DNA of 64,000 nucleotides from a virus. Taxonomy: Duplodnaviria > Caudoviricetes. A model generated the notes under the pieces. It ran no database searches, was not told the DNA's origin, and worked only from the letters and a program-made list of their open reading frames with translations. Below are positions 2,685 to 64,000 of this stretch, in pieces; positions within the stretch are counted from its first letter, which is position 1; each line of letters opens with the position of its first letter. A program made the translations under genes and the position numbers. The stretch spans positions 32,001 through 96,000 of the IMG/VR virus record IMGVR_UViG_3300030433_001574; one strand, written 5' to 3'.

Positions 2685-2726
2685 CATAGTTGTATAGCCT
2701 GTCCGATGTCTTGTCTATACACTATG
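2685..2726. repeat. Imperfect inverted repeat in the longest intergenic gap
   Basis: CATAGTTGTATAG (2685-2697) pairs with CTATACACTATG (2715-2726), with one bulge. Confidence 0.6.
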
Positions 2727-2800
2727 ATTATATGCTGAGTAGAATAGAAGCATAATGTTCAGACGATACAACGGACAATCAAGACAACCAAGATTGAAAG

Positions 2801-22900: not shown

Positions 22901-25900
22901 GTTGTAAAGACCTTGAAAACTGCGTCATTGTTTCCACCTGTAATTCTGACTCGCCTTTCTTGTCCACTTCTTGAGTTGCTGTAACCACTTCCACCGTTTC
23001 TGACTACAATGTTGGTAATTTGTCCAGCAGACGCTGTAATGTCTACCGTTAGCCCTGTTCCACCAGCATTGATGTCAGTCGTAGACAAGTTATTGGCTGT
23101 TGAATAACCAGTTCCGTTTTGTCGGTGAAGCAAATTTGTTCCTAAAGACTCAAGCCTTGTGACAACCCCTGAAACTGGGCTTAACATCGCATCTGAGATG
23201 TTGTTGCCGATGTTGTGAGCGTATGCACTCTCCATGAAGTTGGATTGTTGATACGCTCTGATGTATTTGTTTTGAGAAGAATAGCCGTTAGCGACATCTA
23301 TTTGCGTGATAAATGGGTTCTGAGCACCGCCGTTGTATTTGATAGCGTAGTTGCTCAAGTCAATTTCATCTGTCCCATCGGCCACGTTGATTGACGATGA
23401 CAGCCTCTCAAAGCCCAACTCAGCAGCCTTTGGTGAAGTTTGGACTTGCATATGTATGTCTTGGAAAGCGATGAACTCACGGTCATGCGCTACGTCATAC
23501 AACAACACACGAGCGTGGCCTTCTGTAGCAAGATACGGGTCAAGGTAAGCCACAGTCGGTGGATTGCTCATACCCAGTTCATCGTAGTTCAACTCAATGG
23601 TTTTATTGACGTGCTGAACAAAGTTACGAGCCGTTTCGATACAACTATCACCAATCAAGAAGTTTTCAAGAGGGATTGAATCACGAGGCTCTGTAGCCAT
23701 AAGCCCTTGACCACCATTGAATCCCTTCCAAACAAGCGCTTCGTTAAGCACACCACGACTCTTAGCAAACATACCCTGAACAGCGTGAGGGTTGTTGTAG
23801 GTCATGTTCATCCATACAGTATCACCACGACGCAAACCACCTTGAGCGTAAGGGAACAACCACGTTCTGTTTAGACAAGCCTCTTCGTCATTCTTCATCA
23901 TCGAATGACATCCAGTTCGGAGGTATACTTTTTCCGTAGAAGGCGAAGCCGCTGCTTGAGTAATCATATTGTTGAGACTGGTCTTGTTGGCAGCAGGGAC
24001 TGCTGTTTTGAGGTAAATTTTCGTATTGACGGCTGGAATTGTTACTGGATTACCTCTGATTGCCCCTTCAACGATGTATTCAACTTGACCCAACAATGTC
24101 ACAGTAGTAGGACTTCCGCTAATTTCATGTTCGGCATAAATCCAATCGTTAGGTTTGACATTCAAATAGAGTGTATTGGCTTGTAGAAGTTGAGATTTTG
24201 TCTGACTCTCAAGAGTCAGTTCCTTATCACTCCCGCTAATGCCCGCTATCTCCCACGGCGATGAATAGAATGCGGCTCTACCAGTATGCGACTTGTTTAC
24301 TGTGTTGTCCAACTTTGTGTTGTATTTGTCGCTTGAGAAGAAAACATCGTAGCCGTATTTTGTCAGCGTGGCTGTCTCACCTTTCAGTGTGTCGTTCTTG
24401 AGATAAGAAGGAACTGTGTTGTTCTCTTTGGTCATCACTATGATGCTGGACAGTGTATCAAGAGAGTCAGTAGGTGTTAGACCACCACTAACCAACGTGC
24501 TCTTGTTTTTGTTCCCTTCTCCAAAGTAGACAAATATGTTTGAGTCAATCTCCAAACTGTAGTGTGCTTGTCCCATCTCCCACTCATAATCAGCGTTGAT
24601 ACTGTTCGGTTGCCTTTCGACAGATGGGAACTTGTCTACATCTTCCTGACTCATAATGAGATGAGCAAAACCAGTATACACCGAGCCATTCATGATTGGC
24701 TCTACACTCAAGACAGTTCCTGTTGCACGACCACTTTGCACTCTTGCGGCGTGAGGATTTGATAGCGGCCCTGCCTTAAACTCGACAGCGCTTACATACT
24801 GACGCAAACCGTAGTCGATGTTACCGCCTTGCGTCTTGACACTGGCTGCGTCGTAGTAGTATTCGCTTCTGTTCTCAAAGTCAGCAGCGGCGTTGAGCGC
24901 ATCACCCTTGAGTGGCACTAAGACCTCAGAGTCGTATGCATTCCCCATGAGAAGAGGCGTGCCTATGGTGAGTTGAGAGACAAAGCCTTTCGATACATAG
25001 GATTCTTCTTTTGTAATTTCTATGTAACCATCTGTTATTGGGTCATTGGAGTAGATAGCCCACTCTCCTGAAGGAAGGAAGACTCTACGGAACAGCAAGA
25101 CGTTATCGACGTTGTAGTGATTGGTGTTGGTCGTTGTTACATCACCTGCTGGGAACATGGCTGGATTACTAACATAGATTCGATAATTGGTTGAGTTCGT
25201 CTCAAAGTTCGTGATGTTCGACTGATTGTTCCTCTCGTTAGCGAGAATACTCTTTGCATACGCTCCGTATGCGCTTCTGTCTGATGGAGGTAGGTCTTGG
25301 TATCTACGCCCTACTGGTGAAGGATTCCATGTGTGTGCGGTCATGGTAGGGTCGATGTGAAGTTTCAACGAGTTGTCAGGGCTTGGGTAACTGTTGTTTT
25401 CTCTATCAGCAAAGAACTGACCTCTGAACAAAGGTATCTCAACCAAAGCACGAGTTGAAGCAAATTGAGTCCCAAGTTGATAATCATGTGATATGTTGTC
25501 CATTGATTGGAACATTCGGTCATTGACTGTCGTGCCGTCAGACTGTAGGTTTTCAATGAAGAAGTGACCGTCTCCCATGATGATTTCACCAAGAGGAAAA
25601 TCTTGAGACTGCGTGCCAGTTAGAACATCAGCATCCTTTCGCAAACCGCTACCAACTACCCAGTCTTGGAATGTGGCAACAGCGTTACCGTTGGGTAGTA
25701 GGAAACGACGAGTAGATACGTTAGAATCAGTGAACAAGAAACACGCACCAGTCTTGCTTTGATATTCCGCATTTGCTCCGTTTTTCAGGTAAATTCTTCC
25801 TACTTTCGGAAACGGATAAGTCCCCCAACTCGCTAAATCGGGGGAGTCGTTGTTAAGAGGAGACACTTCGATAAATTGCGTTCCGTTACTGGTGCTCAAA

Positions 25901-28860
25901 TCGACCCTTACTTTAGTAGCAAGACAAGAGAACCCTCTTCGACTACTGTATGGTAAATGAGCCAGTGTGCTTCTGTCAAACGATGGCTTTGTGTCGTATG
26001 CTCCTTGACCTACACCACCCAACGTAACACTCACGACAGGTGCGTTAGGGTCTATCTCTTTGACGACATGAGAGTCAGGGCTGCCTGAGCCTAACTCGTT
26101 GATGCTTCGTGTAGCAGCGACATCAGAAAGACCAACGCAGTGAACAAGCGTAGAACGCCCGTTTTCATCTTCTACTTGTTCAATCCCTCGCAACTTTGAG
26201 CGACCCATTAAGAACATGACAGTGGCTATGTTGCTGGAGTTAGGTCTGTCTTTTGTGGAATAGACGTATTGCAACTGATTTGTGCGTGTTCTGTCTGAGG
26301 GCTGGACAAAGAAACGATGTGTGATACCTACACTACCCTTAACTTCTACATTGTCGATAATGTCGAATATCTCGTGAATAGGAGAGGCTGAAGAGGTCAC
26401 ACCTATGTCAAACTGACCAGCGCTTGGACTGCTGTGAACTGTATGCGGTGTCATACGGTTGAACTCAGAAGACACAGTAAGAGAGCCGCTATCCGCTACT
26501 CTTTCAATCAGTATGCGATGGAATACAGAATCATGCTGGGCTTTGGTCGTATGCGATGCTGTCAGATTCTGAGGTGTTGTGTTACCGACAGTTCCCGCTG
26601 CTGTAAAATTAGCAGGTGTGCGTCGTTCATCCAACTCAACATCGGCCTCAAAACCCTCGCTGATGTCACCTACCAATGAGTGACTGAAATTGACTGAGCC
26701 TAAGTTTCCTTCTTTTGATTTACCAACGTCAATATAGCCACCAGCGGCGTAAAGCGTAGCGTTACCAGCAGCGACATCGGTTGCTATGTCATCATAGACA
26801 TACACACCGCTGGCAACTTCGTAGTTTGATGCTGGGACTGTTTTTTCAACCATGAGCATCGGTGCTGTCTTACTCATCGAAGCCCCTGTAAAATCAATAG
26901 CATTGTAGTGAACCTCAACATACGGCGCAAGCCCACGACTGGCGAGGGTAGGAACTTCCAGTAGGGCTACACGGCTGTCTCTCGATGGGTGTAAGTGAAA
27001 TTTACGAACATTATCGTCAATGTTGTTTATGTCTTGAGGCACTGGCCCTTTCAAAGCAAACGGTAGTGGGTCAAAGTCATTGTCGGTAGCACTCGCACCC
27101 CCCAACGCTATGAGCGTCCTATTTGCTCCGCTTAGTCCGTTGGAGACAATCTCATGAACAGTGCTGTTATTGACAACTCTTAGGATTTCAAACGCTGCTG
27201 TGTCTTTGTAGTAATCAACTTGAGAGTTGATAGGAAACATCGAATCAATACCTTTTGAAGCAGCATCGTATGTCAGTGTAAGAATGTCAGAATTACCAGC
27301 CTGTTGGTCAAGCGTTTCTTCATTGGCACGAGGCATGAGCCTGAGATACGGATGACCTTCAACGTGATTGAGTGTATGACGACCTGAGTGTCCTATCTGA
27401 AAACTCTCATCCAAATCGGTAGGCCAAGCCACTGCAAACGGGTTGTCTGTATCGACAGCAGTTGTAGACATACGGCTGGAATATACCATAGCGTGTTGCT
27501 CGTATAGCCCTTCATCAATCAACATCTGACCTGCTCTGTCAATCAATTGTGTAGAAAGATGAGGTGGTTGATACGGGCGACCTGTGCCGTTTTCGATGAG
27601 GCAATCGGCTGAGATAACAACAAATGAGTTTGCTCCATTAGCCGATGTGTGTGTTGAATGAAGAATGGGTCGCAGTCCATCGGTGTTGGTTGTTGTCTTG
27701 AAATCCAAGTGAATACTTGATACTAACAATCGACCTGATGAAATGTTGATGCGGTGCAAACGCACACGCTCAGGTGGTTTACCGTTTGGCTTCTTTGAGT
27801 CTTGGTTGATTGAGCCGGGATTGATGAGAAGATTGTAAGGAACGTGAGGCACGAGATGGTTGGTAGTCGTGCCGGGTGTGCTGTATCTGTCGATAACAGA
27901 GTAATTACCAGTTGAGTATGGGGAGACTGTAAAATCAACATAGGTGTCTGTAATTGTTTTACCAGTCAAAGCGTTAGCCAAAGATTGAGCATCAGCGGAA
28001 GAGATTGGTATTGAAGAAAGATGAGTTTCTGCTGAGGCTAATCCATCGTCATTGTAAGATGTTTCAATCACATCAGTTATGGTGTAAACACCACTTAGAG
28101 GTGAGATAGGCTCTTCAAATCTATACAACGATACAGTCTTATCACCAACCATTGATGGGTTACGAGTTATCATCTCGTTGTTAAACGATGAGGAGACGTG
28201 AATGCCTTCAATCACACCTCTAAACTCACCACCCTTACCACCAATGTAAACGTGTGAGTTCTTTGGTCTTAAGGCAGCATCGAGAGGAATTATTTGTTGG
28301 GCTACCAAATCCCCATTGACGTAAACTTCAGCCTTACCTCTATTGATACAAGCAACAAGATGGTAGAGTGGTCTTTGATTTTGACTTAGTGATGTTGCTT
28401 TATCCTTAGCACTATCAAAGCGGTTGTAAGAATCATCAAGCCCACCAAATGTAGTCACTGGGTAGACTTGTCCATCATACCCATTTGTCTCAGGCTGAGC
28501 GCTGCGAAGAAAAACCTTCATCGCACCTGTAGAGGCAGAGGTGAGATTGGCTTCAAACTCAACTGGGCCGGGTGTATCAACCGTTCCCATGCTAAGACGA
28601 AACTGACCTTCTTTCATGAGAATCACGCCACCACAATCAGGAACGACCCATGCTTCAATAGCCAAGCCATCACCTAACAAATCAGCAACCATACCTCTTC
28701 CCGTTGCGTGAGATACAATCGACGCTGAACTTCTACGGGTAATATCAGTTTCTTTGTCGTAGTCTTCTCCTACCCTACTGAAGTTGCCCTGTGGAATAAT
28801 GACGCTATCGCTCACGCCATCAAAGAACAAAGCGTGATTAGACTGAAGCATGATTGGCAC
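10930..28860 (-). CDS. Giant 5976-aa tail-associated protein with an N-terminal LamG/ConA-like domain
   Basis: Uninterrupted 17.9 kb ORF with GAGGTGA SD; ALFFDG..D, IEAWV, VYVNG, YIGG, FRGVI, LYRFEE LamG motifs; lies between the post-TMP gene and the hub. Confidence 0.8.
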   Translation of the reverse strand: MPIMLQSNHALFFDGVSDSVIIPQGNFSRVGEDYDKETDITRRSSASIVSHATGRGMVADLLGDGLAIEAWVVPDCGGVILMKEGQFRLSMGTVDTPGPVEFEANLTSASTGAMKVFLRSAQPETNGYDGQVYPVTTFGGLDDSYNRFDSAKDKATSLSQNQRPLYHLVACINRGKAEVYVNGDLVAQQIIPLDAALRPKNSHVYIGGKGGEFRGVIEGIHVSSSFNNEMITRNPSMVGDKTVSLYRFEEPISPLSGVYTITDVIETSYNDDGLASAETHLSSIPISSADAQSLANALTGKTITDTYVDFTVSPYSTGNYSVIDRYSTPGTTTNHLVPHVPYNLLINPGSINQDSKKPNGKPPERVRLHRINISSGRLLVSSIHLDFKTTTNTDGLRPILHSTHTSANGANSFVVISADCLIENGTGRPYQPPHLSTQLIDRAGQMLIDEGLYEQHAMVYSSRMSTTAVDTDNPFAVAWPTDLDESFQIGHSGRHTLNHVEGHPYLRLMPRANEETLDQQAGNSDILTLTYDAASKGIDSMFPINSQVDYYKDTAAFEILRVVNNSTVHEIVSNGLSGANRTLIALGGASATDNDFDPLPFALKGPVPQDINNIDDNVRKFHLHPSRDSRVALLEVPTLASRGLAPYVEVHYNAIDFTGASMSKTAPMLMVEKTVPASNYEVASGVYVYDDIATDVAAGNATLYAAGGYIDVGKSKEGNLGSVNFSHSLVGDISEGFEADVELDERRTPANFTAAGTVGNTTPQNLTASHTTKAQHDSVFHRILIERVADSGSLTVSSEFNRMTPHTVHSSPSAGQFDIGVTSSASPIHEIFDIIDNVEVKGSVGITHRFFVQPSDRTRTNQLQYVYSTKDRPNSSNIATVMFLMGRSKLRGIEQVEDENGRSTLVHCVGLSDVAATRSINELGSGSPDSHVVKEIDPNAPVVSVTLGGVGQGAYDTKPSFDRSTLAHLPYSSRRGFSCLATKVRVDLSTSNGTQFIEVSPLNNDSPDLASWGTYPFPKVGRIYLKNGANAEYQSKTGACFLFTDSNVSTRRFLLPNGNAVATFQDWVVGSGLRKDADVLTGTQSQDFPLGEIIMGDGHFFIENLQSDGTTVNDRMFQSMDNISHDYQLGTQFASTRALVEIPLFRGQFFADRENNSYPSPDNSLKLHIDPTMTAHTWNPSPVGRRYQDLPPSDRSAYGAYAKSILANERNNQSNITNFETNSTNYRIYVSNPAMFPAGDVTTTNTNHYNVDNVLLFRRVFLPSGEWAIYSNDPITDGYIEITKEESYVSKGFVSQLTIGTPLLMGNAYDSEVLVPLKGDALNAAADFENRSEYYYDAASVKTQGGNIDYGLRQYVSAVEFKAGPLSNPHAARVQSGRATGTVLSVEPIMNGSVYTGFAHLIMSQEDVDKFPSVERQPNSINADYEWEMGQAHYSLEIDSNIFVYFGEGNKNKSTLVSGGLTPTDSLDTLSSIIVMTKENNTVPSYLKNDTLKGETATLTKYGYDVFFSSDKYNTKLDNTVNKSHTGRAAFYSSPWEIAGISGSDKELTLESQTKSQLLQANTLYLNVKPNDWIYAEHEISGSPTTVTLLGQVEYIVEGAIRGNPVTIPAVNTKIYLKTAVPAANKTSLNNMITQAAASPSTEKVYLRTGCHSMMKNDEEACLNRTWLFPYAQGGLRRGDTVWMNMTYNNPHAVQGMFAKSRGVLNEALVWKGFNGGQGLMATEPRDSIPLENFLIGDSCIETARNFVQHVNKTIELNYDELGMSNPPTVAYLDPYLATEGHARVLLYDVAHDREFIAFQDIHMQVQTSPKAAELGFERLSSSINVADGTDEIDLSNYAIKYNGGAQNPFITQIDVANGYSSQNKYIRAYQQSNFMESAYAHNIGNNISDAMLSPVSGVVTRLESLGTNLLHRQNGTGYSTANNLSTTDINAGGTGLTVDITASAGQITNIVVRNGGSGYSNSRSGQERRVRITGGNNDAVFKVFTTTSGIVNALTSMTQAALYGKAHGHFIHTGYHTGGPLAKKRTLGDSITSRTNNAVAIPYHANKEHNKTRKLFSSNDVLIKALMQHRISKGKTLTLKAGGSGYNNGTFYNVKTTTDGQGSGMTVDVTIASNAVVTATVNRHGDSLYEEGDTIFIGDRSLYILPTGTANVSGNEDGSFTLFMNRRNEETSTLFDTPDGTRVIPAFLALKGIRSEALDLSNMTTETRLQHLPQWTQMDFTRRMTIDLGEVAVRDGITSVEAAATEVVRMINQAAAKKGRTHSNNTNKQYPVKVVGEADFATTGSTHDPVVWWDEDKAFESHDKGTHMGYIRAHLGRVVRDVDGNEEGFSIIIHSTVPGATGRNFAVWLDNSKGQVPYKPEFMIGHGGRFRTFWCMPDELSGENMHPAPMPLNKHGRPFAPITSLRQYTQPDESMQAVVPKGEFSNNHDETTTPRLRAVSAHSGSGQNHNTLNTESLEIEGFNTSFTEGLRVGTNAVARINFGGLVSAGVPGFAPDAGKWGFGRKGDERFANDYGKLTKVVDTEPATTYTGHVPTAQVFPDSIGDSPIYGLRLQDHRGVEHGIRYIYKNMGEKFALDNTLLPKTLENEIVVYFNHKDCSQGGFTIGKHMHGISDPTGRFPATPSNAGLANWRGNLWRGAPAPNASYNTDVVYNTTDKTITVTLYAPYDDCPHHDVLGYMGFPAENGVIHLSDPYNDASLTGNWGNMFAYTHRTRNDKTGTHVFHGVTGDTYISRHKIHTHSNTAPTLTLGDFVVGEETDGISALITPVANWTTLVTDELMAAVTAAAINLTDPNEETTFDCTNMYAADGRTFGEWGITDESIKIKAYNTKGNIEPISDFFTASLSQDVGIRASHIEYGEVESLKINNDGVTVTGDATRPVGDGLIAKGRSLNCGYIPSTIIQITTKGRGHNANTATPNIVDSQNNPINTSTWRKNLIGENFIESSGDLILPNLDNPTLKMTNVHSASMMALHGDNEMWHFAKPAGYEASVNHVEQGQTQDYARVDSFGTKTPISYGTHTAVTESQNVNSGGYVSEKTFSQLLDSNLRSGDWPSSNPSGTLVVQKYADLRAYLFAGKRSLGSVHSLPIIHFTGARDGPDNYVPLFFGGGFSGAVVDINDGTQNDYSEHNTHPYANGPTGSAGIQNANEILSSFSTLDCNAIMAFFPATALLKQHRGSINPPVYNKDNILSPDIKRGAQSVSNIHPNAAPYTAGVHMQVPSPMVLRFAHPTARYNDHRDSVDNKTTYIIFGPGQAFPLCQEKASPDNAFEPHPGEAVSTGNAWSKVPNMSSGAGGRAFLPNHIQNSTGEYMPERAATQLAKHRFHYRQVLNWESPLGIPDTVFLRERPENGRNYGNSFTANAFDHYSTASNFTDDVAKAYAVAQPSRHAMFYAGGMVKNADLCWHMDNGNHPGGSWMDNQITMNPPLQGAATRISLNTNVSRINKTAFRVAGVLATKMLHSNDNSGSPGFSTDTLTASDVDHEYIVVDATRCQNGEELACVLGAAINTFPGKGALKAIGGTFMPSMGNATRQDRYGWIESISKAIPSGVYGNGTVGGVTANSDVTDYGYSNNTVSVAPMVRSGTATSTFTANVTSGVAAIAVTGTFPALIQAGQSVSGTGIQANSVVASFNSTANTVTINPAPNATNTGVTITFTRNTLGNTATGGASLKNGDCFIDVEITGAATGNEESVANRVPASGWLRTEANHDYGASVSSSVKSSAWASYHSRAFYRDGSAVDSPLRCRFFLSHNKVTGLKAFEDGEAWRIYANTSVAFNSGGGSNVSGVTLPHPAPSVGTKIWIWSKSATIGVDNSAGSRFSNYGIGAPHFSGIADAIDRTKPVGAVGWHGERYSYLNTLSVDGGFSAGLGAWHSMLGFSPYGGSSSCANMLGHLPHTTPLPNSPESMPPTDIPGGSLSNFPSDGDTEADSVSYSTDDTVGFGTYIMGWTDGAQFNNPPVMRDMPEIQKELIHAQGTYSRALLVVAHEGELSLVARKDRDNHTSTGDYLLAGGTTQWDERFHHSDRFVAPANAGPNVEALIADNTAPPTISDYTTSTVLDGAPFNAQVYLHPSLSADSSLSNAEPCRAETGDLFFDIDKNVGIVNHELNIGERNLATDFITSTNTPSNNMVSTSHDVQSGIFWAGDVNAYDVLKRSPHKNFSTEHIVWKRMDGGTVTMPASNARGLGAVPWITRVVGGNAHTMGEKLYGNIRFSFETTNSAMMPVLQAQEIAHPTLAKEHPIALGGVLEIPNEEIQFEDITVVDDTGQVHTLEGGSPLGIVIRAYKPASTRLASGLQPVPANSGIPPNFEIQLPDPESIPGNILVRSGFDPIQAYQTETFGDGGMIHPDLGASHIGHLFDNVVKSPRKGPTMNEVGWEHISQDENFPESTRDGWVAATGNNTLRSSYEQQDRALYFHITKMGHSHTEKFPTTYTHTAGVVNQALTVDSYTSTSITASAAINENIFSTGFGTQEVADNRRFIRISNAAGESVIASYKSISSDVFNDLVGDIDFTQFMADNFAVGALTITPSYYVPAGSARIFAARRLRDHAEVSGNSPDMAHTLYFDGDAQTTIHSRYSKPQLTPMPIPRMGHHFVNATMPMMPGHWAHPAYQGLYEKANSDKLASLPDEDYTTLADNLVEVDGTTNNQTSIPTAVTDRIFPLNPALRVGSLTANPSGPSDIHGGAFTLMFETKIKYDGYGILASKGTAGDMNKAGGHSIVLEAGGNYTQANHFPDPAEVGAYQIVIQPNLRSQQVTGFHRNNADATGLPTAGTELSGLTSQQVNLVIGIKYDEERHSSLTNSANIGGVTLILAEATLADVRGCEIFLNEVILDHDPDHGSQLANIPPMLLYNPLGVQGSESPSFTRRGHPYHPTTPEIEFKDATPGFTTNIPWWSIMHQGTPSDASAVGFRHLALYRIDNYYQFCRASYGAVAAQLTLAGYPSIYPDIYSKIMENVSLAPTCKVVGAHSSATAIQVDDASLFPEKPYYGQKLQYIDPSTGKTVSFSYTTRQGLSHSSATMNEPDVFHLPTGITIADGTKLTLSKPYSTKSVNDIFNNDSESVLTKNLGQLLTGTRDTNSLFLTDAYLCAWSPNLGRPHTFYSDASRTWITNGVNHTSDRAVNNAAYNSMPQHFETIHYQDVNYAASHGPLTLRMKTPVPPKPLTGTVSSVATTTVSVITMTDTVTGVSNGDVLFAKGRVLGRVNGTSGADITLYTKIFESNLVSGDKVYLDGDGEVLSGSGINAISGLSSQSGTFMLSNYWPCGSRGGPLVSRLDGYAAAAAAWHLPQSYAHNGGIHWEDDDDDGSYAVANGVSTGSLSALRTYPFGYRFGLRQAWNRPQWGHYGMRAFQEQATHSGASNLAVGYKAGPLIEYESISSNGWLYAGGDSTQSNTDLPTTYVGILERSTTAAGMLNADKYEWQVRYSDGRRMTRGFGCALRTLRNSSTVIRDWWGDSAGMGLLYYKDAVSYYLIDWWGNTRGEDVRRFPVRSFGINPSWDAGDAYEYDRTNNRTPFERVWNNGKPIFNLKGIVDFSNGNVLSSPTATIPRFGGRKNTGNNNTDTTLVDVFAPTNALRVGDMGNGRGVRFPTQFNEDRLVELSAVYQNSGVVLSSNTAEPTFGQGLIRPRNDALQPSEIVRGISARLEVDEDGLLKPEATVSDKVESISGTSVHKDAVSRSSPRIGIDGDTIESLTGSNANMVAINSEAHSLHTNRGVGQRVVLHGGMQSGSQTLGDYDLTSLSFAAQPHGGVMRFSHTSNFKPMGGTYILEARSFASPFDDTGWGRSGMSGTKTSNPYQTTSSVASQTNMTDDAVQFMLRPIRLLDNQHIAVFRPALALHSGSKQNGSTAFTATAGGKYGLFTYSTPNGRASSGSYMRATNPDTSAPYQPVYLVESSSDTVPVSKGPKLPGTEVTGFDKTTLKSTVTRLIISENTLQHFKSDAPRRTGESKDYTVKPRFSQSLHSKGHKEDVSFNTSDHSGDA

Positions 28861-34585: not shown

Positions 34586-35032
34586 TCAAGGCACTAACTC
34601 CGCAAAGATAACTACTTCTATCTGAAAGGTCATTCGGAATAAAACCTTCGACCTATCAGATAAGTCGGTTCGGGTCTTGTAAACCATGCGGTCAAAGTTT
34701 ACACCGTCCCCTTTTCTTACTGCGTGAATCAATCTTCGTATCTCGTTTTCCATCAATTGTAGATGCTTACGTCCTTTCGCTGTGCGAGCATCAACAGTGA
34801 TGTTGAGACGAGTGGTGACAAAATCATAGAGCAGTTCAGGTGCTTCTTCGTTGTGCGCCGTTTCGTAGCACAGAACGTAATCGTGACGTGACAAATCAAT
34901 TCTCTTACCACGCTCAGCACCAAGCGTAGCAATATCGGCTATGATTGGCTTGATGTTACCAGTGTTAGCACGATTCCAGTCATTCAACGTATTGATGACC
35001 ATATCAAGGGATTCAGTAAACGTAGCAACCAT
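34586..35032 (-). CDS. Tail terminator/completion protein
   Basis: Size, position directly before the tube gene and alpha/beta pattern (ITVDART...EIRRLI). Confidence 0.55.
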   Translation of the reverse strand: MVATFTESLDMVINTLNDWNRANTGNIKPIIADIATLGAERGKRIDLSRHDYVLCYETAHNEEAPELLYDFVTTRLNITVDARTAKGRKHLQLMENEIRRLIHAVRKGDGVNFDRMVYKTRTDLSDRSKVLFRMTFQIEVVIFAELVP

Positions 35033-55665: not shown

Positions 55666-57998
55666 CAGACACCACCTACGCTTACTTTGACAACCTTGAC
55701 AACATCAGTAGAAACATTGAGTCGCTTTGCAATTCGCTCCCAATCACCAGTGGCATGTGCTATTGAACGAACATCAACGGGCGTGAGGTCTACGCTCTTA
55801 GCAAGATAGTGCATACCACGACGGTCACTAACATTGATTGGTCGAGTCAATGCGTGCTTCATGATTTTGCTGTCGTTGCGAGCATCGTCCAACTGCATAT
55901 CTTCCATAGCCTTCATGACTCTATCCATCGGAGAGAGTTCAGTCGGTTGAGACTTCATGTATTGAGTGAGCAAGCGTTGGCGTGGGTCGCCCATGAGTTG
56001 TTGGTAACGCTGCTCTTGAGGTGAAAGTTGCATACCCTGTCCTTGAGGCACTCTTGCGCCAGCGGCTTCTATGATTCTACGAAGCGATGCTGGGTCAGCC
56101 TGTCCGACACGGCTTCGTGCCGCTGCCATTTCAGCACTTTGCGGTGTGAAACCGGGTGCTCCCCGTTGAGGGACAGACGGAGGTAGCGTCGTCTGCTGAG
56201 GTGCTGGGGGAGCAACAGCAACCTCAGTGGGAGTAGGTTGTGGACGTGGAGCAGGTCGCTCAGTTGATGCAGTCGCAGCGGGTCTTGTAACCGATGCTCT
56301 TTCAACTGGGGCGAGTGCTACGTCGTGGTGATACGGAACGTGCTCAGGTAGGTTTTCAATAAGTTGTTCAGGATATTGCATGTAGCGAGAAGACAAACCA
56401 GTGGTCGGAAGCGACTCAGGCAACTGGCGACGGGTCTGATGACCAAACGCTTCGCTAAGTAAATCAGCCAAAGCCTGAGTTCCTTGTCTACGTTGCTCGA
56501 CAGTATCATAACTTTGGAGATTCAAACCCATGTCTTGAATGATAGCAGCGTCGATGTTACCTTCAGCATCTCTTGGCATGTAGGCTCGTAACTCGCTGTC
56601 GTGCTCATCATGTGCTCCACTTAGCATGGCCTTAGCATAAAATTTAGCAGCGTTTTCGTGAGTCCCCAAACCTCGTGTTGGTCTATGTCCATCGAGCGTT
56701 TCCAAATGAGGGCCGGGAACAGCATGGCTTCGCATGTTGTCAAATCCAACCTCGTGGTCTTTTCCAAAGACTTCAAGGATGTGTTGAAACGCTCGCTTGC
56801 CCGGTCCGGGTCTTGCTTTTGACCCACTAATGATACGACCAAACAACATGTTGAAGGCTGGGGTTCGTGATAATTCGTTAATCATGTTTTCAGTGCTGGC
56901 TGGACTTCGCAACACGGTTCTTAGGTTCATCATTGTATATTGAGGAGAGCCAGTTGTGCCGGGAGTTGTGTTAATCGGCACATCAACGTCAGGAATTTTA
57001 TCAGGGTCAATGACCTTTAGCGCTTCAGCGATGTGAACTTTTGCGCTGTCGATTGAGTTTTTTGGCCCTGTCTGTTGGCGACCAGCCATCATATGCATAA
57101 AATCAGGGGTGTGATTCATAACTTCCCAAGACTGGATTCCAGTGTGGGCCGCATTATGGGAAACACCGGGAGGAGCGTTGGTGATGTGTGTGCCGGGTAG
57201 CATAAACCCTTGAGGCGTTTGGATGATAGCGTCACCACCTCGGCCACGAATACGACTACCACGAGGGTGCAAATCTTTGATGTCAATGTGAGGATTGTCA
57301 AGGAACTCAGCACCAACCAAGTCTTTGATACCAAGTGTTTCAAGTAGAATCTTCTGTAGATTGTGATTGTAAGGAACGGCGTAGGACTCAATCATAGCAC
57401 CAATTTTTTCGTTACGATTTGCACGATTGGTATAAGCAGTGATGTATTCTCCACTTTGAGCACGATGAGGTCGTGATGTTGGTTTTCGACCACCATATGG
57501 TGCTACTACGATTTTACGATGCTGCATGTCATCAACATCGGGAATATGGTGAAAACCGCTTTTGTCATCATGTTCAAGATTTGTCATCTCAATGGCACGC
57601 TGAACAATGTTTCGACCAGTAAGTTGTCCCAACTCAGGATGGTCTTGACCAAGCAAACCGTTTTTCTCAAGAGCCTCACCAATAGCGTGTATCACACCGT
57701 CAATTCCGTGATGATGTGATTCTCCATTATGGTCAAGGTAAACCATTTCATCGTGTTTACCTTTAACGAATTTACCGGGAATCAATTCACCCATACCAAA
57801 GTGTCCTGATGGGTGTGGCTTTGCCGCACCGTAGTGAGCGTAGACAGGAACGTCAGGCGTGTTTGGGTCAGGGTGTATTGCTTCAGGAGGTGGAGAAGTT
57901 TTCAGATACGGAGTAAGTCGCCCCGTCTCAGGATGAGGATAGTAACCGTAAACACCGTCACCTTTGAGAAGAAGTGATTTACGAACTAAGACATTCAA
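55665..57998 (-). CDS. His/Pro-rich hypothetical protein with a C-terminal HTH-like region
   Basis: TTG start overlapping the upstream stop; VLVRKS-LLLKG N-terminus; WERIAKRLNVS. Confidence 0.65.
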   Translation of the reverse strand: MNVLVRKSLLLKGDGVYGYYPHPETGRLTPYLKTSPPPEAIHPDPNTPDVPVYAHYGAAKPHPSGHFGMGELIPGKFVKGKHDEMVYLDHNGESHHHGIDGVIHAIGEALEKNGLLGQDHPELGQLTGRNIVQRAIEMTNLEHDDKSGFHHIPDVDDMQHRKIVVAPYGGRKPTSRPHRAQSGEYITAYTNRANRNEKIGAMIESYAVPYNHNLQKILLETLGIKDLVGAEFLDNPHIDIKDLHPRGSRIRGRGGDAIIQTPQGFMLPGTHITNAPPGVSHNAAHTGIQSWEVMNHTPDFMHMMAGRQQTGPKNSIDSAKVHIAEALKVIDPDKIPDVDVPINTTPGTTGSPQYTMMNLRTVLRSPASTENMINELSRTPAFNMLFGRIISGSKARPGPGKRAFQHILEVFGKDHEVGFDNMRSHAVPGPHLETLDGHRPTRGLGTHENAAKFYAKAMLSGAHDEHDSELRAYMPRDAEGNIDAAIIQDMGLNLQSYDTVEQRRQGTQALADLLSEAFGHQTRRQLPESLPTTGLSSRYMQYPEQLIENLPEHVPYHHDVALAPVERASVTRPAATASTERPAPRPQPTPTEVAVAPPAPQQTTLPPSVPQRGAPGFTPQSAEMAAARSRVGQADPASLRRIIEAAGARVPQGQGMQLSPQEQRYQQLMGDPRQRLLTQYMKSQPTELSPMDRVMKAMEDMQLDDARNDSKIMKHALTRPINVSDRRGMHYLAKSVDLTPVDVRSIAHATGDWERIAKRLNVSTDVVKVVKVSVGGV

Positions 57999-59863
57999 AC
58001 TCGCCCACTCCCTCTACCAACAAGAGCGCCGGGGTCAAGCCCGAAGTCTCGTGGTTCATTGTTTACATCTTCCGTAGCGCCTTCGTTTCGATTTGTTTGC
58101 TTTGGACTGTTGGCTGGATAATTTGGTAGTGTGCTCGCTGCACCAGCGGTGTCAGGTTCACCCTTACCCTTCTTTTTGCTGTCCTTGTCTTTCTTTTCAC
58201 GCATCAGTTCACGAATCTCTTTGAGAGCAATTCGCATCAATGCTGCTTGATATGCATTGGCTTTGAGAATGTCACTGTGTTGAGGAATGTCCTCACTCAT
58301 TGTAATCATACTCGGCATCTTAGGTCGTGCTAAGTGTGGTCGCTTGAGTTGCGGTGGCACAATGCTTGGCGCACGAACTGGTCGAAGTCGTGGTCTTGGG
58401 ACACGAGGGTATTGGAGTGTGTTGGTCAAGCGACCACCACCCGTATCACCAGCGATATACGAGCGTTGGCTGTGACGCATGTGTGGTGTGTATACTGTTC
58501 TTACACCGCCCAAGAGTTTACGAGCATCTTGTGAAGCGAGATAGGGTCTGTATTGTTGAGGGTCTTTTGATGGAGGTTGCTTGCTGGCAAGACCTCGGTG
58601 AGAGAACTCAACAGAAAGATGTGGCCTCATTAGCCCAGTTTTACGCCCCAGTGGTAGGTTACGACTGATGTTCTTGGAACGTCTTGACGTGATGTTTCGT
58701 GGGTCGCCTCCACCTTTTGGCTTCTCAAACTGACCAGTAGATGGTCGCCATTTAGCGTAGCCTTCTTTCTTGCGTCGTCGCTTTACGGAGCGCTTTGACT
58801 CTTTTTTTTTAATCGTGTCCGATTTGAGCAATTGCCAAGCGATGTCCATAGGCTCGCTCGCATATTTCATTTGAAAATTATGTTCACTTTGAGGTGTGGG
58901 TGTGAAAGGAGGTGCAAGTTGCTCGATAAATCCCACACCTTTAGGATAGGGGAATGCATCAAAAACAGATTCGTTATCAGGCATTATGTTGCGTAAATCT
59001 TTTGTTGCATTATTTTCAAACTCGACAGCATCTTTTATGTTGTCAAGGGTTAATCCTTGAGCAAAACGAGCCATAGCCTCACGCTCTCCTCCAAATTCGC
59101 TTCTTGCGTCTTTATAGGAATTGATGTAGTTTTGAGCCGCCTCCGCACCAGCATTTTCCAAAATATACTGATACACCTCATTTGGGTCTAATGGTTCTCC
59201 AAAGTATGTCGAATGGTCATGGTTAGAAACCTCATCATGAGTATCTGCTACTCTTTCACCAAACATCTCCTCAAGCATATATGCGGGAGGGTGATTCATA
59301 CGATAGTATTCAGCCAATCTATCCATAGCCCTTTTTCTTTCTTCATTTTTAAGTTCAGGATTATCGCCAGCAAATCTTGCTCGGTCTATCTCATAATCTG
59401 TCATTTCTGACATATCACGCTTTAGCAAATTACTCCAAGCATTATCCATAGGCTCAGACATCTGAACCATCTGACCGCCAGCAGCACCCGGCCCTTTTGC
59501 TCCCATAGCAAGACTGGTAAGGAAACCACCAGCACCTGATGGCATTGTTTGATTTGCTGGATTATCAGTAGAACCACGAGGCTTGAACTTCTCCTCTTCC
59601 TCTTCTACTGGCTCATCAGGTTTTTCGCCATCAATACCAAGATGATGTCTACGGACTTTGATGTGACGGATTTTGTTGTCCTCTTTCTCTTCTCGTTCAC
59701 GCTTGGCTTGCTTCTTGTCCTTGCGCTTTTCCTTGTCTTTGGCATCTTCGACACCGCTGGGTGGACGCTCATCTTCATGATTCGCCCTGAACATCTCGGA
59801 GGATTCTGAGCGAGGATTATACATCCTCGTGTCAGAGGTTCGACCCATCATCCCCTCCGTCAT
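57995..59863 (-). CDS. Basic/low-complexity protein with a duplicated SEPMDxAWx(1-2)LLK motif
   Basis: SEPMDNAWSNLLKR and SEPMDIAWQLLKS; K/R-rich tracts. Confidence 0.7.
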   Translation of the reverse strand: MTEGMMGRTSDTRMYNPRSESSEMFRANHEDERPPSGVEDAKDKEKRKDKKQAKREREEKEDNKIRHIKVRRHHLGIDGEKPDEPVEEEEEKFKPRGSTDNPANQTMPSGAGGFLTSLAMGAKGPGAAGGQMVQMSEPMDNAWSNLLKRDMSEMTDYEIDRARFAGDNPELKNEERKRAMDRLAEYYRMNHPPAYMLEEMFGERVADTHDEVSNHDHSTYFGEPLDPNEVYQYILENAGAEAAQNYINSYKDARSEFGGEREAMARFAQGLTLDNIKDAVEFENNATKDLRNIMPDNESVFDAFPYPKGVGFIEQLAPPFTPTPQSEHNFQMKYASEPMDIAWQLLKSDTIKKKESKRSVKRRRKKEGYAKWRPSTGQFEKPKGGGDPRNITSRRSKNISRNLPLGRKTGLMRPHLSVEFSHRGLASKQPPSKDPQQYRPYLASQDARKLLGGVRTVYTPHMRHSQRSYIAGDTGGGRLTNTLQYPRVPRPRLRPVRAPSIVPPQLKRPHLARPKMPSMITMSEDIPQHSDILKANAYQAALMRIALKEIRELMREKKDKDSKKKGKGEPDTAGAASTLPNYPANSPKQTNRNEGATEDVNNEPRDFGLDPGALVGRGSGRV

Positions 59864-60261
59864 GAATTATCCCCCACGATATGATGTTCAAAACATTGTC
59901 GCAACTTTTGCGCCATTTTTCTATAGAACGATGCTACTCTTGGACTGTCTTGGAATGCATGTGTCATGTTCTCAATTGTGTGCTCAAACTCTTCAAGCAA
60001 ACGAGGAATGAGTTCGTAAGCAGGGAAAAATGTCACAGGGTCGTCATCCTCAAACACTGTCTCAAACGATTTCGCCAGCAACTTGAACAAGTCAGGTGGT
60101 GTAACGTCCAACTCACCATAGTGTTCAAATCGCTTTGTGACACAACGGCAAAAATCAAGATACACTGGAACAGCGTTTTCAGAGATTGGTCGGTCACACT
60201 CTACGAATGTAAACGCAGGGTGCGTCATTTGCAATAAGTCAGGAACTGGAACTGGCATCAA
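59860..60261 (-). CDS. Hypothetical protein
   Basis: Coupled overlaps on both sides; GGTGA SD. Confidence 0.6.
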   Translation of the reverse strand: MMPVPVPDLLQMTHPAFTFVECDRPISENAVPVYLDFCRCVTKRFEHYGELDVTPPDLFKLLAKSFETVFEDDDPVTFFPAYELIPRLLEEFEHTIENMTHAFQDSPRVASFYRKMAQKLRQCFEHHIVGDNS

Positions 60262-60941
60262 TTCATATCACCTGCGTGTTCCAATAACGACTCACGGATT
60301 CTCGCCCATGAGTCAGGGCTTTCTTTTCCAAGTTCGACTTTGAGAATGTTAATCGTGTTATTGACTTGACTGTTCTCAGATGTAGGACTCCATTGTTCGT
60401 TCATCTTTAGCAAGTCCTTTATTGACTCTCTGACTTCTTTGTGCAGTGACACTGCATCTTTGACGAAACCATCTTCATGAACACTGCCCTCATTGAGCAG
60501 TTCAGACAATTTATGGTTGAGCAATTCGACGTTTGACCTGAGTGCATTTATCTCTTCTCCTACGACTAATGTTATTTCAGCAGCGGCGCTTCTTTGAACT
60601 AACGGTTGAAAGTGATGTTTCATGTGATGGTATACCGATGCTTCAGAGATGCCAAGTTCTTCAGCAATAGCCTCTGACTCAGCACCGTCATTGAAGAATC
60701 GACGCTCAAAGTCGGCTCTTTCAACGTGAGCGCATACCTTGCATTGAGGATTTGATGCCATGTGGTATTGACCCATGTGATTGCGAAAGTGGCGGTCTGT
60801 CGTATTGAGTCGCCAGCCCATGTCTTTGTCGAGTTGTTTTGGTGATATTTCACCATCCAGTAGTCCTTTTTCTAAGTCAGCACGACTCGGATGCTGGCAC
60901 AAAGGGCAAGACCTTTTTGTGATAGCACCGCCCTCCGCCAT
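60258..60941 (-). CDS. Putative terminase small subunit / DNA-binding protein with tandem Zn-HTH repeats
   Basis: Two CxxC-H...HTH...HxxxH units, then a coiled coil and N.TINI tail; first gene of the packaging operon. Confidence 0.55.
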   Translation of the reverse strand: MAEGGAITKRSCPLCQHPSRADLEKGLLDGEISPKQLDKDMGWRLNTTDRHFRNHMGQYHMASNPQCKVCAHVERADFERRFFNDGAESEAIAEELGISEASVYHHMKHHFQPLVQRSAAAEITLVVGEEINALRSNVELLNHKLSELLNEGSVHEDGFVKDAVSLHKEVRESIKDLLKMNEQWSPTSENSQVNNTINILKVELGKESPDSWARIRESLLEHAGDMN

Positions 60942-61000: not shown

Positions 61001-61276
61001 ATGCTCCCACCATACGAGAGAGTTCCAAAACAACCTCTCAAGAAACGTGGAAAAGACTTGCTCAAGGCTTCAAAAGACGCACTGCAAGGTCGTAGAGTTT
61101 CAACGTCAGAATACATGGAGCGACTGGACAAATGCTACAGTTGTCCTTACATGCAAAAACGAATGGGGACTTGCCAACTCTGTAGTTGCGTTATGAAAAT
61201 CAAAGCCCTCGCACCCTCGGTTGGGTGTCCAATAGGAAAGTGGTTACCGAGTGATTCGGGAGTAAAGCGTGGTTAA
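61001..61276 (+). CDS. Small Cys-rich protein
   Basis: ERLDKCYSC...CQLCSC.M..K......CP.GKW pattern; divergent from the packaging operon. Confidence 0.7.
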   Translation: MLPPYERVPKQPLKKRGKDLLKASKDALQGRRVSTSEYMERLDKCYSCPYMQKRMGTCQLCSCVMKIKALAPSVGCPIGKWLPSDSGVKRG

Positions 61277-61483
61277 GAAAATAAGCGCTCCAAAGATGCC
61301 TACAACGAAAACGCTAACGTCTCCGCTACTCATTTCATCTCCTTTGAAAACCAAAATAGACACACCAGCGATAATCACAGAGATGAACTGAACCATTATC
61401 ATCTCAACAATGATGTTTCGACTCGGAGCAAAAATCGAACTGCTCGCCTGACTCAATTTTATTCCATAATCACTTGGTTGCAT
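61244..61483 (-). CDS. Two-TM membrane protein
   Basis: Hydrophobic segments IIVEMIMVQFISVIIAGVSILVF and VSVFVVGIFGALIFLTTLY; GAGGTGA SD. Confidence 0.7.
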   Translation of the reverse strand: MQPSDYGIKLSQASSSIFAPSRNIIVEMIMVQFISVIIAGVSILVFKGDEMSSGDVSVFVVGIFGALIFLTTLYSRITR

Positions 61484-61492
61484 TCTATCACC

Positions 61493-62158
61493 TCAGTTTC
61501 TTGGTAGCCCAATAAGACCACGAGCAACGCTACCAATACCGCTACCCACTTTTTGCATTGTTCCTTCATCAGCCATAGCCGCTGCCAAAGCACCACCCAT
61601 CATTGACTGTTGAGACATAGCCATAATTTGCTGACGTTGCATTTCAGCCTCTTGGAATTTTTGATTGCTCTGAGCCGTCATGTTGTTGAGAATCATGCTA
61701 ACATTCTCAGCGCTCAGTGTTTGTAAATCAGATGGCAGTGTAGCAGGGTCAAGTTTCATGACACCAGTATCTTCGTCCAATGAGAATGAGGCGTTTTTCA
61801 ATATGTTGAGTAAACTAAGGCTGGTTGTAGCGGCAACCAACTCTATGAGTGTTTGAAGCCCACCATCTCTGATGAAACGATGAATTGGGTTTTGTGATTG
61901 TAGCAAAGCCGACAAAAGTTCCATCTCACTCGGCGGAGCAAACTGTCCGTTTTGCATCATCATTTGTTGTTGCGGAGTCATACCCATACCACCCATCATT
62001 CCACTCATGAATGGATTTGATTGCTGCTGTTGCTGAGCACCAAGAGAAAAACCGTTTTGAGCACCAGTGCCTGTGGTTATCTGACTAATGCTACCGCCAC
62101 CTGTTTGAGACAGGTTAAAACCACTTTGCTGAGGTTGTTGGTTACCAAAGTTGAACAT
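61493..62158 (-). CDS. Q/G/M/F low-complexity protein with an amphipathic C-terminus
   Basis: FNFGNQQ..GFNL..GFSLG..NPF; C-terminal KVGSGIGSVARGLIG. Confidence 0.7.
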   Translation of the reverse strand: MFNFGNQQPQQSGFNLSQTGGGSISQITTGTGAQNGFSLGAQQQQQSNPFMSGMMGGMGMTPQQQMMMQNGQFAPPSEMELLSALLQSQNPIHRFIRDGGLQTLIELVAATTSLSLLNILKNASFSLDEDTGVMKLDPATLPSDLQTLSAENVSMILNNMTAQSNQKFQEAEMQRQQIMAMSQQSMMGGALAAAMADEGTMQKVGSGIGSVARGLIGLPRN

Positions 62159-62162
62159 CGTA

Positions 62163-63095
62163 TCAAACCTCCCCAGTGCCTAATCCACCATCAAGGTTCT
62201 GTTGCATTTTAGCGTTTTCAACATTAAGCAACTCTTGAAACGCTTGCGTCGGCATGTTCATTTGTTGCAACTCCATTTGGAAGATACGCAAATCAAAAAC
62301 CACCATCGTAACGTCGTTCTGTCCAGTTGCTGGATTTGCATAATGAAGGATATTGATGCCCTTTGTTTTACCTGAATCTCTTTCCAACTCAGCAAAAAAT
62401 GGTTCATACTTCTGTAGCATGGCTGGTGTAGGGTCGTTTTTCTTGACAGATGAAATAGGAACTGTCACAATTGACACACCTCTTTTCACTTTATCACGAA
62501 GGCGATTTGGATTCATCTCGTTTTGTTTGTCCTCTTCGGCCTCCCACTTGTTCAAAAGATGGTAAAGATGCATATGCTCAGGACAGTATGTGCCACGCAT
62601 TTTCTTACCACTGGTAACTCTGTCCTGAGCGATAAATGCTTCAGGCTGCCCTGTTACTGGGTTTTGCCAATACATCTCCCATAGAGAGCGACCTGTTTCT
62701 TCATCGCTGATTTTCATGTAGAGATTATCATGTTGAATCAAATTTGCACAGTTACACCCATCGACAACGCACGTTCCCGTATCTTTGTTGTAACGATACT
62801 TTCGACCTAACGCCCATCGGAACGGGTTTATCCAAGAACGCTTTGCTGGTTGGAGAAGTTTGTATGCTTGCTTGATGTCTTTACGACGAGCCTTCTTTGG
62901 GTCAGGATGACGTGATGGGTAAAAATTGACTTTGGGAACTTCGATGTTTTGAGCAGCGGCAACCTCTTGCATACCTTGTTGAGCCATCAACATCTCTTGA
63001 AGAGCCGCCTGAGTAAGTTGATTGTTACCTTGTGCAGCGAGTATAGCAAGTTCGGCTTCAGTTAGATTCTGTTGAGGTCTGTTCCATGACATCAC
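62163..63095 (-). CDS. Hypothetical protein with a putative Zn site
   Basis: CVVDGC...YCPEH; Q-rich termini; ATGA-type coupling to the AbrB gene. Confidence 0.7.
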   Translation of the reverse strand: MMSWNRPQQNLTEAELAILAAQGNNQLTQAALQEMLMAQQGMQEVAAAQNIEVPKVNFYPSRHPDPKKARRKDIKQAYKLLQPAKRSWINPFRWALGRKYRYNKDTGTCVVDGCNCANLIQHDNLYMKISDEETGRSLWEMYWQNPVTGQPEAFIAQDRVTSGKKMRGTYCPEHMHLYHLLNKWEAEEDKQNEMNPNRLRDKVKRGVSIVTVPISSVKKNDPTPAMLQKYEPFFAELERDSGKTKGINILHYANPATGQNDVTMVVFDLRIFQMELQQMNMPTQAFQELLNVENAKMQQNLDGGLGTGEV

Positions 63096-63289
63096 GCTAT
63101 CACGACCTGCTCAGTCGTAGGAGTCATGACTACAACAATGTGTCCCTCTTGAACGACAAATTTCCAATCTACGCTGTCACCAGCGGTCAAGCCAAAATGC
63201 TCAACAATCCACATTGGCACAGTTGTTCTGAGACTACGACTACCGCCACCAGTAGAGACGAGTGTTGTTGAAGAGTTCTTGCCTGTCAT
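63092..63289 (-). CDS. AbrB/MazE/SpoVT-family DNA-binding protein
   Basis: SLRTTVP.WIVEHFGLTAGD.V.W swapped-hairpin pattern. Confidence 0.8.
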   Translation of the reverse strand: MTGKNSSTTLVSTGGGSRSLRTTVPMWIVEHFGLTAGDSVDWKFVVQEGHIVVVMTPTTEQVVIA

Positions 63290-63344
63290 AATTACACCGA
63301 AACCATTGTTATTGAAAAGGCTACCTATGGGGTCATTTTTTGGG

Positions 63345-64000
63345 TCATGAGGTAAGTAGACTCACCATTGTCTTCTCAACATTCCATCCAATTCTTGTTG
63401 CCATAAACGACCTGCGAGTGGGAATACCTGCTTTCTGTAACCTGATTAAGTCATCTCTGAACGGGTCGAATATCTTATGTTCACCTATGCGACCATCGTG
63501 CCAAAGTTTTGAAGCGGTTTCATCAAAGAAACGGTCAGCCTTGTTTGCAACCAGCATGATAACTCTTGGATGATACTTTCTTCCCTTAAGTCTCGACCAA
63601 AGAGAACGATAGCGATAATTTCGTTTAATGAGGCAATCAACAAGATAACGAAACCCTGCTATTTGCTGAAGACCTTCATCTCCTCCTTTGAAGGCTCGAT
63701 GGTCGAACATGTAAACAATGGCCTCGCATTTACGAGTTACCATGTCTTCAATCCAAAGATTCCAAAAACGCTCTTGTCCTCCTATGTCGGCTGAATAAAC
63801 AACTCGCTTTTCGCCTTGCCAAGATACTCTCTTTCTCGTTGGCTTTGGCATTTTGAATTTACCAATTTTGAGAATACGAGAGTGTGTTGTTCGCTCGTCT
63901 TCAGGTATCTCTTCCATTTCACCGGGCGTGGTGAGATAACGGTCAAGCGTTGTCTTACCAACCATTGGTGCTCCATAAACACCAACTCTTCGTGGCTTAT
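63345..64000 (-). CDS. Ras/Arf-like small GTPase (5' end beyond the window)
   Basis: Frame is open to the window edge: RVGVYGAPMVGKTT (G1), T (G2), DIGGQ (G3), LVANKAD (G4), MAT..G.NV (G5). Confidence 0.88.
   Translation of the reverse strand, partial: KPRRVGVYGAPMVGKTTLDRYLTTPGEMEEIPEDERTTHSRILKIGKFKMPKPTRKRVSWQGEKRVVYSADIGGQERFWNLWIEDMVTRKCEAIVYMFDHRAFKGGDEGLQQIAGFRYLVDCLIKRNYRYRSLWSRLKGRKYHPRVIMLVANKADRFFDETASKLWHDGRIGEHKIFDPFRDDLIRLQKAGIPTRRSFMATRIGWNVEKTMVSLLTS

Follow-up and report, generated by a model that had tools for sequence, protein, structure and literature searches.

Arf-type membrane GTPases are a hallmark of eukaryotic trafficking and have recently been found in Asgard archaea and in haloarchaea. 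The structure 8OUN is that of the Asgard protein GerdArfR1 (bioRxiv 10.1101/2024.02.28.582541), and in Haloferax the Arf-like GTPase ArvA, which carries an N-terminal amphipathic helix, is required for the formation of extracellular vesicles and works with ArvB (OapB) and ArvC (OapC), both encoded in the same operon (PMC10927574). The egress machinery of archaeal tailed viruses, by comparison, has been described as completely uncharacterised (PMC10791045). Here we analyse a small GTPase gene and its neighbours at one end of a 64,000-nucleotide stretch of a tailed virus (Caudoviricetes; IMG/VR record IMGVR_UViG_3300030433_001574). This stretch, hereafter the window, covers bases 32001-96000 of a record of 107,203 bp that is complete by CheckV estimate. 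The best explanation that we can offer for the locus, put forward tentatively on the strength of sequence and predicted structure, is an Arf-type GTP switch cassette acting on the membrane, whose most likely purpose would be the release of virions from a murein-less host.

The GTPase gene runs across the edge of the window. Its likely start is an ATG at window-equivalent position 64067 (L002 6068), 68 nt past base 64000, which gives a protein of 240 amino acids (aa); the alternative, longest open reading frame (ORF) begins with a TTG at 64088 and would encode 247 aa. Since related GTPases start at the Met eight codons after this TTG, and since the ATG overlaps the stop codon of an upstream 85-aa ORF (TGATG), the GTPase is most likely 240 aa long and translationally coupled to the upstream gene, whose product has one transmembrane (TM) helix. 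The initial annotation, made from the letters of the window alone, had reported a Ras/Arf-like GTPase with intact G1-G5 motifs and a basic insert. All five motifs were found (GxxxxGKT, the switch-I Thr, DxGGQ, NKxD and a G5-like box), and G1, DxGG and NKxD are 99-100% conserved among 89 family sequences. In the P-loop GxxxxGK[ST], G39, G44 and K45 are present in 100% of these sequences and T46 in 99%; D101 and G104 of DxGG (G3) and N182 and K183 of NKxD (G4) also reach 100%, with D185 at 99%, the switch-I Thr is kept in 95.5%, and the G5-like box, (M/I)A(T/A), reads MAT in 93%. The catalytic position after DxGG is Gln in 80% of the sequences and otherwise Glu, Asp, His or Ala; Sar1 has His at this position. 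The family also displays the Arf/Sar hallmarks of a D101-x-G-G-(Q/H) motif with a nearly invariant W112 at +7 and a conserved Asp ending beta-4. The basic insert exists as well, at residues ~160-171 before beta-5, and is polybasic throughout the family in spite of its variable sequence.

An AlphaFold model of the GTPase built from a 12-sequence alignment (predicted local distance difference test (pLDDT) 85, predicted template modelling score (pTM) 0.82) contains a G-domain fold that resembles the Arf-family GTPases and is preceded by a helix at residues 5-30. All full-length GTPases of the family have kept a hydrophobic/amphipathic helix at the N-terminus; its maximum 19-residue hydropathy lies between 0.7 and 1.3 in every one of them, under the TM threshold of ~1.6, which fits an interfacial rather than a membrane-spanning helix. 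The best solved relatives recovered with the family profile are GerdArfR1 (8oun, E 4e-6), whose alignment begins within the N-terminal helix, and Arl8 (8e-5). The Pfam matches of the GTPase, which include Roc (18 bits against a cut-off of 27 bits), MMR_HSR1 and Arf (PF00025; 12 bits against a cut-off of 22.3), stay below threshold throughout, and none of 12 diverse family members rises above any Pfam threshold, the best E-value against Arf among the 12 being 0.0048. PHROGs, NCBIfam and PADLOC returned no match for the GTPase, and PADLOC no defence system. Taken together, the motif conservation, the model, the profile matches, the Arf/Sar hallmarks and the N-terminal helix indicate that this protein is a real guanine-nucleotide binder of a new and very divergent Arf-like family.

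The GTPase gene belongs to a cassette on the minus strand. The five co-directional ORFs that had been recognised in the window lie where the initial annotation placed them, and recovery of the upstream sequence adds the hydrophobic N-terminal helix of the GTPase, two membrane-protein genes and a palindromic element. The members are given below in cassette order (the AbrB-type gene being variably present), followed by the ORF that faces them:

Upstream of the window edge, minus strand: 205-aa protein, the first cassette gene; TM helices at the N-terminus, then a charged coiled-coil region (2-TM/coiled-coil).
Past the window edge, between the 205-aa gene and the GTPase gene, minus strand: 85-aa protein, Trp-rich in its tail, with a single TM helix.
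63345..64000+, minus strand: Arf-like small GTPase; the C-terminal ~218 codons lie inside the window and the gene continues past the edge.
63092..63289, minus strand: 65-aa AbrB/MazE/SpoVT-type protein (MazE_antitoxin PF04014, E 7e-5, 23.1 bits against a cut-off of 24.7).
62163..63095, minus strand: 310-aa conserved orphan, always directly 3' of the GTPase or AbrB-type gene.
61493..62158, minus strand: 221-aa Q-rich protein; its N-terminal ~75 aa are of low complexity and rich in Q/G/M, the central part is helical and the C-terminal tail is rich in Gly.
61244..61483, minus strand: 79-aa 2-TM hairpin protein, the last cassette gene (Kyte-Doolittle 19-residue peaks 2.57 and 2.27).
61001..61276, plus strand: convergent 91-aa Cys-rich ORF that shares bases with the 3' terminus of the 2-TM gene and has a sub-threshold Pfam match to DUF6171 (E 7.5e-5).

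Three small integral membrane proteins and two soluble orphans are co-inherited, and predicted to be co-transcribed, with the GTPase. At least 296 stretches in IMG/VR encode a relative of the GTPase, and the cassette occurs in hundreds of contigs. Gene order is identical in all of the 80 closest loci (80/80), and in a broader set, which extends to a GTPase identity of 41%, all five partners were detected in 64 of the 73 loci with room for them. Because the median identities of the GTPase (65%) and the 310-aa protein (63%) in the broader loci approach that of TerL (75%), the cassette can be regarded as conserved almost like a hallmark gene. The 2-TM protein gene, whose two predicted helices are borne out, is found in 80/80 close and 69/79 broader loci. 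The AbrB-type protein, present in only 70/80 close and 34/79 broader loci, is an optional member of the cassette; for its assignment in the initial annotation there is a MazE_antitoxin match that stays below the Pfam cut-off. The convergent Cys-rich, DUF6171-like ORF holds the same place and orientation in 50/80 close and 62/79 broader loci, antisense between the 2-TM gene and the helix-turn-helix (HTH) gene that follows, and delimits the cassette on its downstream side.

A distant version of the cassette, with a GTPase identity of 38%, lies on the 59.4-kb contig L087 (ENA contig k141_745542). The 205-aa, 310-aa, Q-rich and 2-TM proteins all have recognisable homologues there, and a TM protein of 70 aa takes the position of the 85-aa one; the AbrB-type gene is missing, and a gene for an acidic protein is inserted. 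In the 43 kb examined, the L087 element carries a thermosome gene, a TFB-like gene, glycosyltransferases, a DNA methylase, a resolvase and a 2658-aa DUF5754 protein, and a tblastn comparison with this virus revealed no shared gene besides the cassette. By analogy of content it resembles the magrovirus 'group D' elements, the nature of which was left open by Philosof et al. (PMC5434244). In a third version, L085, with a GTPase identity of 32%, the GTPase gene is again preceded by a run of small TM protein genes. In view of these distant versions, the linkage between the GTPase, small membrane proteins and the two orphans appears to be old and independent of the genome backbone. The initial annotation had allowed that its proposal would fall if the genes did not co-occur in relatives; the gene set does co-occur, over deep divergence.

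Searches beyond IMG/VR point to a family restricted to viruses. A phmmer search of 1.84 billion cluster representatives gave 76 matches, all of them members of the GTPase family. Three matches were obtained in the GTDB species genomes, on contigs of 8-16 kb assigned to Parvibaculum, Maricaulis and an Asgard metagenome-assembled genome (MAG); because these contigs are collinear end to end with this virus, they were taken to be mis-binned viral contigs and rejected as cellular homologues. With tblastn against the GenBank phage collection there was no GTPase match, and the TerL matches were distant bacteriophage terminases only. The searchable magrovirus, Poseidoniales-virus and archaeal-virus papers and their supplements mention no GTPase.

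The two soluble partners are orphans. The 'Zn-site' that had been ascribed to the 310-aa protein did not hold up, as Cys and His are not conserved across the family: one Cys alone is nearly invariant, the CxC pair differs even between close relatives, and CPEH gives way to SP(D/E)L in the family's distant half. An analogy with zinc-finger GTPase-activating proteins (GAPs) was ruled out on the same ground. The segment RSWINPFRWALGRK of this protein, which had been likened to the basic insert of the GTPase, is an insertion restricted to a close subgroup, and the likeness is not conserved. The Q-rich protein had been described as FG/NPF/Q-rich and disordered. Its Q/G/M low-complexity composition is kept in 71 distinct homologues, together with the motifs LNLSxTG and PPSE(M/T)E, whereas NPF occurs in 22/71 of them and FG near the N-terminus in 31/71. 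No lead for this protein came from Pfam or Protein Atlas, and the 310-aa protein had no usable Protein Atlas match. In one database protein, P0225, the C-terminal half of a 310-aa-family protein is joined in frame to a Q-rich-family protein, either as a genuine gene fusion or as an artefact of a frameshift or of gene calling. A pattern search of IMG/VR found no close relatives of protein P0014.

In the plus-strand third of the genome there are genes for an SNF2 helicase, a clamp loader like the RFC small subunit, PolB, a Cas4-like nuclease and a thermosome subunit; the last of these scores 403 bits with thermosome models, as against 93 bits with GroEL. A long minus-strand arm encodes TerL, the portal, an S78 protease, the HK97-type capsid protein (MCP) and the tail tube protein; its tail region (window 10930-28860, minus strand) contains one ORF of 5976 aa. 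According to Philosof et al., the group A magroviruses of marine group II archaea combine a thermosome and an SNF2 helicase with a tailed-virus structural block (PMC5434244), and the gene content of this 107-kb tailed virus matches that group. As the gene content fits group A magroviruses, the host would be an archaeon without murein. Magroviruses have been reported as the dominant archaeal viruses in the surface ocean, and their thermosome gene is considered a recent acquisition from the host (PMC5434244).

The cassette itself forms a unit of its own within the structural arm, because A[WFY]xxLK tags, either N-terminal or internal, are found in the flank genes on both of its sides (encoding proteins of 257, 350, 522, 321, 799, 180 and 622 aa, at L002 7055-15656 and window 57995-59863, all minus strand) and in none of the cassette genes. 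Next to it, at window 60258-60941 (minus strand), a gene present in every relative encodes a 227-aa protein with two CxxC...HTH repeats (HTH_20, 31 bits), which heads the next unit, leading into TerL; this protein could be the small terminase subunit. On the other flank (L002 7830-8455, minus strand), two adjacent basic proteins of 104 aa match DUF6321 (65 bits) and DUF5872 (44 bits), and in those relatives that have the pair they are 87-89% identical, far above the conservation of the neighbouring genes.

Directly upstream of the 205-aa gene lies a palindromic element of ~85 bp, at genome positions 96969-97052 (window-equivalent 64969-65052, L002 6970-7053). Two related copies were located, one at genome 259-351, where the plus-strand replicative block begins, and the other at genome ~34,695-34,790 (window 2695-2790), before the genes leading to the thermosome; all share a layout (~85-93 bp) of paired TTGTCY boxes, an AT-rich centre and paired RGACAA boxes. 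When an inverted repeat was defined by 12-nt arms with at most one mismatch within 160 nt upstream, it was found before the first cassette gene in 41/75 relatives as against 5/216 random windows, with arm sequences that vary between lineages. In three complete relatives searched with the strict palindrome pattern only the copy upstream of the cassette was found, the three-copy arrangement being seen in this genome alone.

We propose that these genes form a seven-gene viral transcription unit that would be built around an Arf/Sar-type GTP-binding switch, with its downstream two thirds inside the window. The GTPase, which keeps all residues required for guanine nucleotide binding, would cycle on the host membrane, the 310-aa and Q-rich proteins would act as its regulator or effector, and the GTPase and its partners would together remodel, deform or breach that membrane, as a GTP-timed substitute for the holin-endolysin logic of bacteria. 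The inference that the GTPase acts on membranes as a GTP switch is well supported. The membrane-remodelling or egress module envisaged by the initial annotation has accordingly kept its general part, through the Arf-like GTPase, the conserved helix and the coupling to membrane proteins, while no evidence distinguishes between lysis, vesiculation, a platform for replication or assembly, and the exclusion of superinfection. Egress is our favoured guess for the purpose of the cassette, because the virus is tailed and presumably lytic and its host is wall-less, because the cassette holds no other recognised lysis candidate, and because the field has no candidate for the egress step. The earlier statement that no endolysin or holin is recognisable is correct for the cassette proteins, which have no such match in Pfam, PHROG, NCBIfam or PADLOC; the window as a whole was not exhaustively scanned. 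A more far-reaching version, in which the cassette is the egress machine of archaeal tailed viruses, with the GTPase timing and localising a rupture that is carried out by the co-encoded membrane proteins, and is shared with non-tailed or unresolved elements, seems doubtful to us.

Several results weigh against virion release as the purpose, or against parts of the proposed switch. The model of the 310-aa protein is of moderate quality (pLDDT 67), its structural neighbours do not rise above noise, and no GAP, guanine-nucleotide exchange factor (GEF) or effector fold could be recognised in it. The variable catalytic Gln (80%) may mean that fast GTP hydrolysis is not the point of the protein, and the ~16 extra residues after the switch-I Thr make it uncertain whether an Arf-type interswitch toggle operates here. 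No capsid or morphogenetic gene was recognised in the 43 kb examined of the L087 element, so a general membrane role fits equally well there. In one metatranscriptome library, contigs of a relative with 95-99% identity span the cassette, but such contigs cannot serve as evidence of transcription, strand or level. Finally, a shared operator or promoter fits the three palindrome copies at least as well as a reading of two of them as twin origins, and the copies before the replicative and thermosome blocks could indicate early or middle rather than late expression.

This last point leads to the strongest of the rival explanations, in which the same GTP switch has an early or middle role, either as a membrane-anchored platform for replication or assembly or in a change of the cell surface that excludes superinfection. 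The recurrence of the cassette palindrome before the replicative and thermosome blocks suggests regulation shared with non-late genes, the cassette lies outside the virion-protein set defined by the A[WFY]xxLK tags of its flanks, and the Q-rich low-complexity protein could scaffold a compartment. We nevertheless consider such a role rather unlikely, given that the cassette stands in the minus-strand morphogenetic arm, directly upstream of the HTH protein and TerL, and that no replication protein is linked to it.

Vesiculation by a virus-owned system like that of ArvA, which would bud host vesicles as decoys, for the spread of the element or to weaken the envelope, is less probable still. The viral GTPase shares the architecture of ArvA, being Arf-like with an N-terminal amphipathic helix, and the cassette is found in a 'group D'-like thermosome/resolvase element with no capsid gene seen in the 43 kb examined; the cassette may work like ArvA. 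OapB (PF09846) and OapC (PF09845), however, have no match in the 107-kb genome, for OapC including the 310-aa protein, whereas control genomes match (Haloferax and Methanosarcina in the case of OapB), and to our knowledge no tailed virions exit in vesicles. Judged by its partners, then, the cassette is not a member of the ArvA system, and the link to ArvA drawn in the initial annotation stands as an analogy that lacks the defining partners.

It is very unlikely that the GTPase has no membrane role at all and is a folding, assembly or translation factor, with neighbouring membrane proteins unrelated in function. MMR_HSR1 and GTP_EFTU are among its sub-threshold Pfam matches, but the gene order persists from 95% to 38% GTPase identity and also on a different backbone, the gene is coupled stop-to-start with a TM protein gene, and the hydrophobic N-terminal helix is present in all full-length members. 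A recent capture of a solitary host gene, now serving as an auxiliary gene, is scarcely credible: capture does happen in this lineage, as the thermosome of such viruses illustrates (PMC5434244), but the 76 phmmer matches all fall within a virus-restricted family, the three MAG matches are mis-binned viral contigs, no family member reaches any Pfam GTPase threshold, and the gene set is co-inherited.

If virion release is indeed the purpose of the cassette, it would represent a GTP-switched lysis system without a bacteriophage counterpart. In any case, a virus-owned cassette of nearly terminase-level conservation gives the question of archaeal tailed-virus egress a concrete and clonable candidate, and the predicted switch would extend the Arf-type membrane GTPases to viruses of Euryarchaeota. 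As the hosts are uncultured, tests are limited to biochemical or heterologous ones.

Three known systems bear comparison with the cassette. The first is the Arf family, including Arl6, Arl8, Arl3, Arf1, Arl1, Sar1 and the Asgard ArfR1 proteins (8OUN, 8OUM and 8OUK), to which the viral GTPase is ~15-20% identical, below the PF00025 threshold. It differs from these proteins in its ~16 extra residues after the switch-I Thr and its polybasic insert before beta-5, lacks an invariant catalytic Gln and the Gly2 required for myristoylation, belongs to a family restricted to viruses, and has partners unrelated to known GAPs, GEFs or coats. The second is the ArvA/OapA operon of Euryarchaeota, which the viral system resembles in having an Arf-like GTPase in an archaeal context with an N-terminal amphipathic helix, an operon that includes two small partner proteins and a proposed capacity to deform membranes; in place of OapB and OapC the viral cassette provides integral membrane proteins, the 310-aa orphan and the Q-rich protein. 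The third is the holin-endolysin cassette of bacteriophages, with which the viral cassette shares small proteins of one or two TM helices with charged tails and a place in the structural arm of a tailed virus. Unlike a holin-endolysin cassette, it has no wall-degrading enzyme recognised by Pfam, PHROG or NCBIfam and no holin-family match, its predicted host has no murein, and it places at its centre a GTPase and two soluble orphans.

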